From positions 128,001 through 192,000 of the forward strand of contig CBDATS010000004.1 of the NCBI GenBank assembly GCA_965200245.1: 64,000 bases of DNA, written 5' to 3'. Positions within the stretch are counted from its first letter, which is position 1; the number at the start of each line of letters is the position of its first letter. A program made the translations under genes and the position numbers. Positions 19,850-24,825 of the stretch are shown piece by piece. The DNA comes from a bacterium (GTDB lineage Bacteria > UBA8248). The notes under the pieces are model-generated. The model was not told the DNA's origin, made no database searches, and worked only from the letters and a program-made list of their open reading frames with translations.

Positions 19850-19893
19850 TTACCCACAGGAAAGCACAACATTTGGGGATAACGTGTGGGTAA
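19850..19893. promoter_or_regulatory. Three DnaA-box-like nonamers upstream of nrdJ
   Basis: TTACCCACA (19850-19858), TGGGGATAA (19874-19882), TGTGGGTAA (19885-19893); each 1 mismatch from TTATCCACA. Confidence 0.55.
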
Positions 19894-19963
19894 ACGCATA
19901 TATTTTGTGCATATCCATTTTTTTAGCATTGACATACAAAAGGAAACATACTACACTTAGTGT
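19864..19963. promoter_or_regulatory. NrdR boxes upstream of nrdJ
   Basis: GCACAACATTTGGGGA (19864), CGCATATATTTTGTGC (19895, 31 bp later), ATACTACACTTAGTGT (19948); resemble acaCwAtATaTwGtgt. Confidence 0.7.
19929..19957 (+). promoter_or_regulatory. sigma70 promoter of nrdJ
   Basis: TTGACA-17nt-TACACT; the -10 lies inside the third NrdR box. Confidence 0.7.
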
Positions 19964-20030
19964 TATCATCAGATTTGGATATACCAGATATTCCATTGTA
20001 ACGGGACGCCCTTGGCGGAGGAAATTGGGA

Positions 20031-23000
20031 GTGGAGTTTACGAGGCGTTTCACCCGGGCCGGAGATGATGCGTACGGCGACATTCGTTTCGTGCCGCGTA
20101 CTTCGCGCATCACGAACCCCGACGGCTCGGTCGTCTTCGAAGCAAAGGACATCATGGCGCCTGAGAACTGGTCCCAAGTGGCCGTCGATATATTGGCACA
20201 GAAATATTTCCGAAAAGCCGGTGTCCCCGCCCAATTGAAAAAGGTTCCCGAAGACGGGGTGCCCGAATGGCTCCAGCGCTCGGAACCCGACGAAGGAAAG
20301 CTTGGATCCCTGCCCGAGGAGAATCGATTCGGCAGCGAGCGGGACGCCCGGGACGTATTCCACCGCCTGGCCGGATGCTGGACGTACTGGGGGTGGAATC
20401 ACGGCTATTTCAACGCCGAAGAAGACGCCAGGGCTTTTTACGAAGAGCTTTTATACATTCTCGCGAACCAGATGGCGGCTCCCAACTCGCCGCAGTGGTT
20501 CAACACGGGCCTCCACTGGGCCTACGGCATTACACGTCCCGCCCAGGGCCATTTCTACTGCGACCCAAAAACCGGGGAAATGCTCCGCTCCACCAATGCC
20601 TATGAACGTCCCCAGCCACACGCGTGCTTCATCCAAGCGGTGAAAGACGATCTCGTCAACGAGGGCGGGATCATGGATTTATGGACGCGGGAGGCGCGCA
20701 TCTTCAAGTACGGATCGGGAACCGGCACGAATTTTTCTAGCTTGAGAGCGGAAGGGGAATCGCTTTCGGGAGGCGGAAACAGTTCCGGTCTCATGAGTTT
20801 CCTCAAGATCGGGGACCGCGCCGCTGGCGCGATCAAGTCAGGCGGCACGACGCGACGTGCGGCGAAAATGGTCACGCTCGATATCGATCACCCCGACATC
20901 CAGGAATTCATCAACTGGAAGGTGCATGAGGAACAAAAAGTAGCCGCCCTAGTATCAGGCAGCAAGATGTGCAACCGGCACATGAACGCCATTCTCGGTG
21001 CCTGCCTGGAGGGCAAGAATCTGGGCTTGAACGGCAATCTGCACCTGCCGGACAAGAATCCATCGCTCGCCAAAGCGGTACGCGCCGCCAGACTTGCCGG
21101 CGTTCCGGACAATTATATTCATCGCACCCTTCAGCTGGCGCGCCAGGGCATCACCGAGATCGAATTCGAGGAATTCGACACGAATTGGGAAAGCGAAGCC
21201 TACGCCTCGGTGTCCGGACAAAATTCGAACAATTCGATACGTATATCAGATGGATTCATGAAAGCCATCGGAAAAAATACGGACTGGAAACTGATTCGGC
21301 GCACCGATGGCGAAATCGCCGACTCCGTCAATTCGAAAGAACTTTGGGATCAGGTTGGATACGCGGCCTGGTGCTGCGCAGATCCTGGCCTTCAGTTCGA
21401 TACAACCATCAATGACTGGCACACTTGCGCCGCTGACGGGCGCATCAACGGCTCCAATCCCTGCTCGGAATACATGTTCCTGGATGACACCGCATGCAAT
21501 CTTGCATCTATGAATCTCATGAAATTTTTGGACACAAAAAAGAATCATTTCCAGATTGAAGACTATAGGCACGTCATTCGCTTATTGACGGTTGTCCTCG
21601 AGATTTCGGTGCTTATGGCGCAATTCCCCAGCGTGGAAATAGCCAAACGTTCATACGAGTACCGAACCTTGGGGCTCGGATACGCCAACTTGGGCACCTT
21701 GTTGATGGTTCTCGGCATCCCTTACGATTCGCCGGAAGCGGAAGCATGGTGTGGCGCTCTCACTTCCATCATGACGGGTTGCTCATACGCCGCCAGTGCC
21801 GAGATGGCCGGCGAACTAGGCACTTTTGAAAGATACCCGGACAATCAAGAACACATGTTGCGAGTATTGAGAAACCACCGTCGCGCAGCTTATTCAGTGC
21901 CTGAAGCCGAATATGAAATGCTCTCGAAATCACCAAAAGGAGTATCTGCTGAATTCTGCCCTCAGTATCTTCTCCAGGCAGCGTGTGCTGCGTGGGACGA
22001 CGCCTTGGCTATCGGCTATCGGAACGGCTACCGGAATGCGCAAGCTACCGTCATCGCACCAACGGGCACCATAGGTTTGGTGATGGATTGCGACACAACG
22101 GGAATCGAGCCTGATTTTGCTTTGGTGAAATTCAAAAAACTGGCCGGAGGCGGCTATTTCAAAATCATCAACCAGTCCGTTCCTGTTGCCTTGAGGTGCC
22201 TGGGATATAACGACGAAGAGATCCGTGAAATCGTTGCCTATTGCCGGGGGCGGGGTACACTCACGAATGCACCTCATATCAATCCAGAATCTCTGTATGC
22301 AAAAGGGTTCACCAGCAAGGCTCTTGAAAAAGTGGAAGCTGCACTGGAAGGAGCATTTGAAATCCAGTTCGCCTTCAACAAACACTCCCTCGGTGAAGAC
22401 TTCTGCCGTGAGCAATTGGGGCTCACTGAAACGCGATTGGCAGACTGGGATTTGAACCTGCTCGAAGCCATTGGTTTCTCTCAAGAGCAGATCGCTGAAG
22501 CGAATGATTTCGTTTGCGGAAAAATGACAATCGAGGGCGCACCCCATCTAAAAGAAGAGCACCTGGCCGTCTTCGACTGCGCAAGCAAATGCGGGCGTGA
22601 AGGCAAGCGTTTCATCACCCCTATGGCGCATGTTCAGATGATGGCGGCAGCGCAGCCTTTCATATCAGGTGCTATAAGCAAAACCATCAACATGCCTGCG
22701 GAATCGACAATTCAGGACATCCTGGACATCTATCATGAATCATGGCGACGGATGACAAAGGCAATCGCGATTTACCGCGATAGTTCAAAACTAAGCCAAC
22801 CACTTTCCACGCAAAGCGAGGCGGAACTCTTCAACGATATCGGCGAAGAAAAAACAATTTCGCAAAGCACTCCGGTGCATGTAGCCCAGCGGATTGTGCG
22901 CCGGATTATTTATCAATCCGAAAGACGCAAGTTGCCTACCCGCCGCGGTGGATACACGCAAAAAGCCGTTATCGGCGGGCACAAGGTGTATCTTAGAACC

Positions 23001-23630
23001 GGCGAATACGAGGATGGTTCTATCGGCGAAATTTTCATAGATATGCACAAGGAAGGCGCCGCCTTCAGAAGCCTTATGAACTGTTTCGCTATCGCGATAT
23101 CCCTGGGGCTCCAACACGGCGTCCCTCTGGACGAATTCGTAGATGCTTTCGTCTTCACGCGCTTCGAGCCAGGGGGCATGGTCTCGGGCAACCCCCACAT
23201 CAAGATGAGCACATCCATTATCGACTATATCTTCCGCGAGTTGGCGGTTTCATATCTTGATCGACATGATCTTGCCCAAGTCGTGTCTGAGGACCTCAGA
23301 AGCGATACCATTGGACGCCCGCAACGAGAAATCCCTGAATTCGATGCTGAGGAAGAGGAAACCGAGGAAGAGATTCAAACCATAACCTTGGGGTCGGACA
23401 CGATCGCACCGCGTAGTGATCGAGTAAATTTGGATTACAAGAAAGGACCTACCCACGCTCCTGTGGTGTCAAGAACAGGAGCAGGTTCCGCTCTTGATTC
23501 GCGTATCGAAGAAGCCCGCGCCAAAGGTTATGAGGGTGAAGCATGTGGCGATTGTGGTTTATTCACCTTGGTAAGAAACGGTACGTGTCTGAAATGTATG
23601 ACATGCGGCGCGACCAGCGGATGTTCTTGA
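20031..23630 (+). CDS. nrdJ: Class II (adenosylcobalamin-dependent) ribonucleotide reductase with TSCPD and C-terminal Zn-ribbon domains
   Basis: [55 protein letters not shown]-terminal CxxC...CxxC; GTG start after GGAGG. Confidence 0.96.
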
Positions 23631-23637
23631 AATAAAC

Positions 23638-23929
23638 CCGTCGTGGGGGAAACGGGCGGACTCTGCGACGGAACGAGAGTCGGGGGAGAATCCTCGGAGG
23701 ATTATTCCCCCGACTCTCACCGAAATAGTATTCAGTGAATCTTCTTGCTGCGGGGAAAACGGGCGGACTCTGCGGCAAGAACGGGAGCCGAGGATAATAT
23801 ACTTCGGGAGTTGAATCCTCGGCTCCCACTTCATATCAAAAGGTAATCCCTGCTACGGGGGAAACGGGCGGACCCTGTGGCAGGTCGAGAGCCGATGAAG
23901 TTTCCTAGGGGGAGTCTTCATCGGCTCTC
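23638..23929 (+). ncRNA. Three tandem two-hairpin structured repeats (~106 nt period); candidate ncRNA array
   Basis: Hairpin A (23638-23671, 23742-23781, 23849-23884) with loop RAAACGGGCGGA; hairpin B (23675-23718, 23783-23827, 23887-23929) with 13-14 bp Watson-Crick outer stems; stems covary between copies. Confidence 0.6.
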
Positions 23930-23939
23930 CCTTCTTCGC

Positions 23940-23968
23940 TTGACACTTGAAGCGGCTTCGCCTACTTT
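23940..23968 (+). promoter_or_regulatory. sigma70 promoter of tRNA-Ala(CGC)
   Basis: TTGACA-17nt-TACTTT, 14 bp before the tRNA. Confidence 0.65.
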
Positions 23969-23982
23969 CAAATTCCTTTTGT

Positions 23983-24058
23983 GGGGGTGTAGCTCAGATG
24001 GGAGAGCGCGTGGATCGCACCCACGAGGTCAGGGGTTCGAATCCCCTCACCTCCACCA
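23983..24058 (+). tRNA. tRNA-Ala(CGC)
   Basis: 76-nt cloverleaf; acceptor GGGGGTG/CACCTCC with G3:U70; anticodon arm CGTGG-ATCGCAC-CCACG; GTTCGAAT; encoded CCA. Confidence 0.96.
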
Positions 24059-24186
24059 GAATTTCAGTTTTGGGTTGATATTTCAGCTACTTGCAAGTCA
24101 TGCAGACAGGTCCTGGTTCATGGGTGCGTTAAAATGGTGCGTTGCCTGTGCATTCGGGATCTTCCTGTGTGGCAGGGAATCGCTTG
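24051..24186 (+). repeat. 136-bp inverted repeat, left copy
   Basis: Reverse complement of 24622-24757 with mismatches only at 24172 and 24175; contains GGTGCGTT twice (24123, 24136). Confidence 0.95.
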
Positions 24187-24690
24187 GGCTTCTGCATTTT
24201 CCAGTGCTGTATTCCCGGACACCTGAGGAAGGCCAACCCTTCCCTAGGCCGGTCTTTCCGGAAATCCCTGCACACCCGCAACAGGAGGAAGGCGCTGCGG
24301 CATGCCAAGGTGCTTTCAGTCATGATGGACGAACTGGCGAAACAGTATTTTCATGACGCTGCACCCTGTGCAAGGGCACTGAAACTCCTTCAGGAGTACA
24401 GGTCCGCGGAGAACCTGTATCCGACGTGGAAGCAGTTTGAAGAACATTTCCTGATGGATCTCGATGACCGTGAGATGAATTTGCTGAAGCGAATCATTGC
24501 CCACAGGGAAGCAATGGCGATGACCCGGCCATCTTCCCGTCCGGTTCCGGACATGGCAAAACTGGAAACCCGTTTGCAGGAACTCCTGCAGGAACAGACC
24601 AGGCACATGTCACTGGAAAATCAAGCGATTCCTTGTCACACAGGAAGATCCCGAATGCACAGGCAACGCACCATTTTAACGCACCCATGA
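24142..24690 (+). pseudogene. Integrase N-terminal (DUF6538-like) remnant
   Basis: NRLG..IFQ..IP.HLR....GRSFRKSLHTRNRRKALRHA resembles the DUF6538 pattern; no tyrosine-recombinase catalytic motifs. Confidence 0.6.
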
Positions 24691-24757
24691 ACCAGGACCT
24701 GTCTGCATGACTTGCAAGTAGCTGAAATATCAACCCAAAACTGAAATTCTGGTGGAG
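24622..24757 (-). repeat. 136-bp inverted repeat, right copy
   Basis: Mate of 24051-24186; begins in the 3' end of tRNA-Ala(GGC). Confidence 0.95.
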
Positions 24758-24825
24758 CTGAGGGGGATCGAACCCCTGACCTCATGACTGCCAGTCATGC
24801 GCTCTCCCAGCTGAGCTACAGCCCC
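24750..24825 (-). tRNA. tRNA-Ala(GGC)
   Basis: GGGGCTGTAGCTCAGCTGGGAGAGCG CATGA-CTGGCAG-TCATG ...GTTCGATC...CAGCTCCACCA; G3:U70; C32-G38. Confidence 0.96.

Follow-up and report, generated by a model that had tools for sequence, protein, structure and literature searches.

What is the role of a tandem array of RNA hairpins that stands directly behind the gene for a ribonucleotide reductase? The question is raised by a 64,000-nucleotide (nt) stretch of a Nitrospinota genome (hereafter the window; positions 128,001 to 192,000 of contig CBDATS010000004.1), in which nrdJ, encoding a class II (B12-dependent) ribonucleotide reductase, is followed on the plus strand by three direct units of about 80 nt at positions 23638-23929, each composed of two hairpins, here named hairpin A and hairpin B. 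In the ocean, nitrite is oxidised mainly by Nitrospinota, which make their DNA precursors with a B12-requiring reductase; to our knowledge, almost nothing is known about regulation at the RNA level in this phylum. The array is a structured plus-strand RNA under selection for its structure, it is lineage-specific, confined to one family of the Nitrospinota and tied to the 3' end of nrdJ, and it constitutes a previously undescribed structured RNA motif, with no match in Rfam or in the literature searched. As to its function, we tentatively favour, at a probability of roughly 0.45, a lineage-specific module of the nrdJ 3' untranslated region (3'UTR) whose repeated loops dock a putative trans-acting partner, likely a protein.

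The three units share a 32-nt core, found at 23639, 23746 and 23851 and thus at a period of 107 and 105 nt, and the middle copy of this core shares 78% and 88% identity with the first and third. Hairpin A has a stem of 11-14 base pairs (bp), topped by GGGG/CUCU (GGGG/CCCU in unit 3), and a 12-nt loop, which reads GAAACGGGCGGA or AAAACGGGCGGA in the window; hairpin B begins 1-3 nt further 3' and consists of 13-14 bp with a small apex. In unit 1, hairpin A (23638-23671, 11 bp) starts 7 nt past the TGA stop codon of nrdJ and displays the loop GAAACGGGCGGA at 23649-23660, and hairpin B (23675-23718) has a perfect 13-bp outer stem with the apex CCU-CGG-AGG. After a 23-nt A/T-rich linker (23719-23741), unit 2 comprises a hairpin A of 14 bp with the loop AAAACGGGCGGA (23742-23781) and a hairpin B with a perfect 13-bp outer stem and the apex CUU-CGG-GAG (23783-23827). 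A second A/T-rich linker of 21 nt (23828-23848) leads to unit 3, with a hairpin A of 12 bp, again with the loop GAAACGGGCGGA (23849-23884), and a hairpin B (23887-23929) that is a candidate intrinsic terminator or 3'-exonuclease barrier for the nrdJ transcript. The outer arms of hairpin B are 13 nt long and 100% complementary in units 1 and 2, and 19 nt long and 89% complementary in unit 3. A preliminary description of this DNA, made from the sequence alone, had proposed three units spaced 107 and 105 nt apart with two hairpins each and AT-rich linkers of about 21-23 nt, all of which are present in the sequence.

As plus-strand RNA, a 321-nt stretch containing the array folds with a free energy of -163.1 kcal/mol (z = -9.29), which none of 100 shuffled sequences equalled; the minus strand reaches -141.6 kcal/mol (z = -8.46), leaving the plus strand an advantage of 21.5 kcal/mol. 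Covariation was measured on an alignment (A5) of 95 hits to a covariance model, representing 83 distinct units from 36 genomes. Standard pairs fill 98.3% of its pair cells, compared with 88.8% in shuffles, 18 of the 24 pairs, spanning both helices, show changes on both sides, and none of the five covariation measures was reached in any of 500 shuffles, although these figures are not probabilities, since the sequences are related and the alignment was fitted to the model. When the 3' partner was slid by 1-3 columns as a control, pairing fell to 38-57%, and an alignment of 57 units made with MAFFT only, with no structure supplied, still has 97.8% of cells paired and both-side changes in 15 of 24 pairs. 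A single pair position may show CG, UA, UG, GC, GU and AU; together with the slid controls, such variety is hard to explain without a helix. The strand follows from the G·U pairs, which make up 326 of 1985 pair cells (summed from the per-pair table) and almost always form the two pairs at the top of hairpin A (64 and 81 of the 83 units): conserved G·U pairs indicate a plus-strand RNA, since the minus strand would have A·C mismatches in their place, and this bias agrees with the advantage of the plus strand in folding. No reading frame is consistently open across 35 arrays, and the spacings of the units are not multiples of three. The proposal of a plus-strand RNA selected for its structure, made in the preliminary description, is thus borne out by covariation in both helices and by the conserved G·U pairs.

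Within this structure, the most constant element is the sequence CGGGCGGAC, the 3' nine bases of the hairpin A loop, of which the terminal C forms a pair with the final G of the stem. It is identical in all 83 distinct units, from at least seven genera, and its invariance extends to the A+T-rich single units of the genus designated g5. The three to four bases that precede it in the loop are variable (GAAA, GUAA, GACA, CACA and others), as are the stems. Hairpin B has an almost constant apex, CCU-NGG-RGG. Within genus g1, units group by their position in the array across species, and between genera they group by genus; the positional clustering indicates that the three units predate genus g1 and that each has been retained. 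Long-term selection on each unit is supported by this clustering and by the decay of hairpin B once hairpin A is lost: in three genomes (loci L032, L040 and L041) hairpin A of unit 2 is missing, the spacing is 162 nt and the orphan hairpin B is gathering mismatches. In one genome (L042, G013) unit 2 has recently been duplicated, giving two identical neighbours.

The distribution of the element was followed with a covariance model built from 57 units (R1). In the genome to which the window belongs (3.68 Mb, 95.8% complete) the model finds the three units only, at 80.7-92.6 bits, its sole further match, of 30 bits, being an echo of hairpin B on the reverse strand of this locus. The exact core likewise occurs in this genome only at the three array positions, and ten more core hits, with two mismatches each, are no commoner than hits of a reversed control. 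Homologues are present in relatives: R1 matches 36 of 41 further genomes of this family (Nitrospinota/Nitrospinaceae), the five matchless ones being 79-93% complete and in 280-560 contigs, and none of nine genomes from three sister families of the class. Carriers hold one to four units, all together at one locus per genome; among 35 distinct arrays, four have one unit, eight have two, 18 have three and five have four. A pattern scan over one genome per prokaryotic species returned 107 stretches, in which multi-copy, hairpin-bearing stretches are titled Nitrospinota bacterium, uncultured Nitrospinaceae bacterium, Candidatus Tectomicrobia bacterium or simply "bacterium", and single-copy pattern hits in unrelated phyla had no hairpins. 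A scan of metagenomes returned 119 stretches, of which the first 100 were searched with the model (the other 19 loci being L310-L328); six of these 100 contain true units, with the C-terminus of nrdJ just upstream in all six. Viral contigs gave a single chance hit, inside coding-like sequence.

nrdJ lies upstream of the array in every flank checked. Measured in 35 arrays, the gap between its stop codon and the base at which hairpin A begins to pair is most commonly 9 nt; it amounts to 6-27 nt in 33 of them and to 98 and 284 nt in the other two. Recoding or read-through of the nrdJ stop codon was rejected, as frame and distance to hairpin A vary and TGA, TAA and TAG are all used as stop codons before arrays. 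The gene tRNA-Ala(CGC) is the downstream neighbour of the array in g1, g2, g7 and g8 and in most of g9, but it was not found within about 1.2 kb in any of the three genomes of genus g5 or within 2 kb in one g9 genome; since this neighbour is not universal, the constant partner of the array is nrdJ and not the tRNA. No gene around the locus except nrdJ is common across genera, which also disposes of a conserved neighbouring gene as the partner. In the sister families, nrdJ (40-46% identical in its C-terminal region) ends with ordinary, unrelated hairpins and has no tRNA nearby.

Is the array part of the nrdJ message? One study supplied four metatranscriptome runs that contain 60-78% of sampled words of the region 22900-24100, and contigs assembled from these RNA libraries join the nrdJ 3' end to the array (23201-23841, 23183-23843 and 23355-23878), one run having a contig that reads on to the 3' end of the tRNA (23245-24059). 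The bridging contigs have a depth of 12-21, compared with 3.4-5.9 for contigs further upstream in nrdJ. Such contigs carry no information on strand, ends or local depth, and two of them break inside the repeat; they fit read-through from nrdJ, as had been predicted, and a relatively stable 3' end. In all four runs the deeper contigs open 270-450 nt before the nrdJ stop codon (23183-23355), which could reflect either a long-lived 3' fragment left by decay or a start inside the gene, two origins that the contigs cannot tell apart.

The 3' end of this transcript is likely to lie at the last unit. Among 35 last units, the 15 nt after hairpin B contain on average 5.7 T and 2.3 A, typically reading CCCUUUUUC, whereas the 15 nt after 59 internal units contain 2.9 T and 6.3 A, typically ACCAAAA. 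With a U-rich tail behind it, the last hairpin B has the appearance of an intrinsic terminator for nrdJ. In the window, the tail is the pyrimidine/U-rich sequence CCTTCTTCGC (23930-23939), and relatives mostly have CCCTTTTTC or CCCTATTTC there. It is followed by a promoter-like site, TTGACA-17-TACTTT (23940-23968, plus strand), which was read from the sequence directly, stands before the tRNA gene and is kept in the genus as TTGACA-17-TACCTT, its -10 element being too weak for a consensus scan; this site is the 3' boundary of the array and lies outside the RNA units. The linkers within the array, at 21-23 nt, have no conserved promoter. Internal units differ from last units in a further respect, in that hairpin B is followed by NCCA, with A, C or G as the first base, in 27 of 55 distinct internal units and in 5 of 33 last units; hairpin B of unit 1 in the window is followed by ACCG, where most relatives have ACCA. 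NCCA resembles the 3' end of a tRNA and could, by analogy, mark sites for tRNA-processing enzymes. A T-loop is absent, and neither ARAGORN nor Rfam gives a tRNA-like match over the units. An origin of the units from the neighbouring tRNA-Ala was also considered and rejected, as the local alignment is not significant (5%, 25% and 85% of shuffles score as high for units 1, 2 and 3).

In the model that we favour, the modules would be transcribed by read-through from nrdJ, and each hairpin A would present the invariant loop core as a single strand on a long stem topped by two G·U pairs, with hairpin B acting as a very stable clamp behind it. The last hairpin B and the U-rich tail would end the transcript and block decay in the 3'-to-5' direction. 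The repeated hairpin A loops would then dock a trans-acting partner, most likely an RNA-binding protein, whose existence, identity and effect we infer; this partner may set the stability or use of the nrdJ message, or may itself be titrated in step with nrdJ expression. Several points weigh against this model. The covariation counts come from kin sequences and a model-fitted alignment, and the RNA evidence consists of one study's assembled contigs, in which carry-over of DNA is possible and strand, ends and processing are not recorded. The tail in the window is only weakly U-rich (CCUUCUUCGC) and a consensus scan called no terminator, and the single unit of genus g5 lacks a U tail. Finally, the search for a partner came back empty for CsrA, Hfq, ProQ and proteins with an RNA recognition motif (RRM), the last three having been looked for in the studied genome at its completeness of 95.8%.

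The array could also be explained in other ways. The nearest of these, although in our view an unlikely one, is that the 3'UTR is a source of small RNAs (sRNAs), released by cuts in the linkers or by tRNA enzymes at hairpin B as trans-acting RNAs of about 80-105 nt, with the loop as the seed for pairing with mRNAs. An invariant single-stranded loop on a stable stem would suit such a function, the contigs covering the nrdJ 3' end and array are deeper than those of the nrdJ body, and the NCCA found mainly after internal units would offer RNase P and related enzymes a tRNA-3'-end-like site, but half of the internal units lack it and, as noted, nothing else in them is recognised as tRNA-like. The seed itself finds little to pair with: complements of the loop of 8-10 nt are no commoner in the genome than those of the reversed motif, and a scan of the start regions of long ORFs for such complements, crude, unannotated and confined to a single genome, gave 94 scattered and unconvincing candidates with no pattern. 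In genus g2 the nrdJ 5'UTR contains a hairpin with the hexaloop CGCCCG, complementary to the loop, and CGCCC(G) occurs in many nrdJ 5'UTRs; however, it is absent in genus g5 and two g1 genomes, and 7.7% of 300 permuted loops pair, on average over the 24 distinct UTRs, as well, so that pairing between the two ends of the nrdJ mRNA was rejected as a general mechanism. Neither Hfq nor ProQ, as mentioned, was found. Pairing of the loop with tRNAs was also rejected, since the best duplexes involve segments that are base-paired within the stems of unrelated tRNAs, none being specific to tRNA-Ala(CGC); the loop contains GCG, the codon of this neighbouring tRNA, but no more than 4 bp would result, and in g5 this tRNA does not adjoin the array. 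Less probable still is a purely structural stack of hairpins, which would terminate the nrdJ mRNA and shield it from 3' exonucleases with no specific partner. The great stability of the hairpins, their place directly after the stop codon, the U-rich tail on the last unit and the deeper contigs at the nrdJ 3' end are all what such a barrier would give, but a barrier needs neither a 9-nt loop that is the same in every unit of at least seven genera, nor two fixed G·U pairs, nor a conserved hairpin B apex, and the nrdJ genes of the sister families make do with ordinary, unrelated hairpins.

A more specific target is offered by the ribosome, as ACGGGCGG of the loop has an exact complement, CCGCCCGU, in the organism's own 16S rRNA, at the decoding site ('1400' region). 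According to this possibility, which we regard as very improbable, the loop of hairpin A pairs with the decoding site, and the nrdJ 3'UTR or pieces of it dock on 30S subunits or their precursors. The organism's own 16S gene carries GTACACACCGCCCGTCACACC, and the best duplex between loop and 16S rRNA lies exactly there (8 bp, -17.5 kcal/mol). Of 1000 permuted loops, only 0.7% find a 7-mer complement within that 27-nt stretch, and hairpin B has at its apex a sequence like a Shine-Dalgarno motif (GGAGG or GGGGG). On the other hand, the match was noticed post hoc, and among permuted loops 10% can find an 8-mer complement at some place in 16S rRNA and 19% equal the duplex energy. The final A and C of the loop core, although invariant, add no pairs, nor does the variable 5' side of the loop, and in mature subunits most of these rRNA bases are already paired, as part of helix 44. 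Were it true, the nrdJ 3'UTR or released units would capture 30S subunits or assembly intermediates, and the supply of deoxynucleotides would be tied to ribosome availability by a contact between mRNA and rRNA outside the Shine-Dalgarno system. (The decoding-site sequence CCGCCCGU lies on contig C8 at about 286431.) Two further readings, both put forward in the preliminary description, are close to refuted. A sponge for CsrA/RsmA-type proteins was suggested by GGA in the invariant loop (GCGGAC), to which GG(A/G) at the apex of hairpin B and the several copies per transcript may be added; yet the context of these motifs (GCGGAC, and NGG-RGG at the apex) is unlike the A(N)GGA consensus, and CsrA (PF02599) was found in none of six genomes, the studied one and five single-contig relatives, with the same search positive in three controls. 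A DNA-level repeat, either REP/BIME-like, as proposed there, or a protein-binding iteron, would account for palindromic tandem units, but the array occupies one locus per genome in one orientation, the Y1 transposase of the RAYT type (PF01797) was not found in the studied genome by a search that was positive in six genomes as a control, a DNA hairpin of the other strand would be mispaired at the conserved G·U positions, and the region is present in RNA libraries. The preferred reading, a 3'UTR module with a putative docking partner, is in our view the best explanation.

Comparison with described families and systems yields analogues only. A search of the 64-kb window with Rfam 15 at gathering thresholds finds just two tRNA genes, and a permissive search of 23400-24200 (E up to 10) gives a best score over the units of 19.7 bits, for an outer helix of RNaseP_arch with a gathering threshold of 84, in keeping with the earlier impression that no recognised RNA family is present. 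The same holds for the dismissal of a CRISPR, as the repeats differ from each other and the would-be spacers are themselves conserved hairpins. Targets of ANTAR proteins are also pairs of hairpins, with hexaloops that have A at position 1 and G at position 4; the loops here are 12-13 nt and 3 nt long, and the ANTAR domain (PF03861) was not found in the studied genome, a search that is uninformative because its control was likewise empty. Closest in layout are the tandem multi-copy sRNAs NsiR1 of Nostoc and LhrC1-5 of Listeria, which likewise consist of head-to-tail units of about 60-110 nt in variable copy number, each with a conserved-loop hairpin followed by a terminator-like hairpin. These form free-standing clusters with a promoter and a terminator per unit, whereas the nrdJ array starts 6-27 nt past a stop codon, has no promoter in its linkers and bears a U tail on its last unit only. 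In the sponge RNAs CsrB and RsmZ, many hairpins on one RNA display a short G-rich motif with GGA, as here, but they are products of separate genes and show ANGGA, while the array has a fixed 9-mer, is joined to an mRNA and occurs in genomes in which, in six of six, CsrA was not found. CpxQ and SroC, Hfq-dependent, single-copy sRNAs derived from 3'UTRs in enterobacteria, share with the array the principle of a regulatory RNA at an mRNA 3' end that uses the terminator of the message; the nrdJ unit is repeated, and no Hfq or ProQ was found. REP/BIME elements, which stabilise mRNAs in enterobacterial 3'UTRs, are stable palindromic units past the stop codon that are able to block exonucleases, but hundreds of them lie scattered over a genome, in either orientation and in association with RAYT transposases, unlike the single, singly oriented nrdJ array with no RAYT gene found. 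The preliminary description had also thought of a type III antitoxin. ToxI-type repeats, which are cut to monomers, are, like the array, tandem direct RNA repeats, but they are short and near-identical and stand directly before the toxin gene; the units here, about 105 nt each with their linkers, are 78-88% alike and are followed by a tRNA gene, and the ORFs near the array match DUF362, TauE and, weakly, DUF6538, with no toxin family among them, so that this idea is not sustained.

The invariant 9-nt loop can serve as bait in the search for a new RNA-binding regulator or RNA partner, in a genome in which the usual regulators, Hfq, ProQ, CsrA and RRM proteins, are unmatched. 3'UTR control operates on mammalian reductase mRNAs, and we know of no such case for a bacterial reductase; the array offers a test of bacterial ribonucleotide reductase control through the 3'UTR. 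The motif is, in addition, a candidate new family for RNA databases.

The nrdJ gene itself (20031-23630, plus strand) is identified by its domains, Ribonuc_red_lgC, Ribonuc_red_2_N (class II, B12-dependent) and TSCPD, in an ORF that ends at 23630; the listed ORF opens at 19884, with GTG at 20031 as the likely start. Upstream of this codon, a promoter-like TTGACA-17-TACACT (19929-19957) overlaps the palindrome ACTACACTTAGTGT, which resembles what we take to be an NrdR box. Further upstream, an inverted pair of DnaA-box-like 9-mers, TTACCCACA at 19850-19858 and TGTGGGTAA at 19885-19893, is present, and relatives have TTATCCACA, presumably the DnaA-box consensus. The nrdJ leader of genus g1 (20000-20030 in the window) contains a small hairpin directly 5' of the Shine-Dalgarno sequence GCGGAGG, which reads GGGACGCCC in the window and GAGGGCG-AUGG-CGCCCUC in one relative; the leader hairpin of genus g2 is GAAUUU-CGCCCG-AAAUUC, its hexaloop being the one complementary to the 3'UTR loop core. 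Downstream of the array, tRNA-Ala(CGC) (23983-24058, plus strand; found by Rfam and ARAGORN) is followed by an ORF at 24142-24690 with a weak, below-cutoff match to DUF6538, a domain that we take to be typical of the N-termini of tyrosine integrases, and this ORF may be the remnant of an element integrated at the tRNA. Beyond it, a second tRNA gene, tRNA-Ala(GGC), lies on the minus strand at 24750-24825, and the RNA contigs contain an opposite-strand joint between 24186 and 24600.

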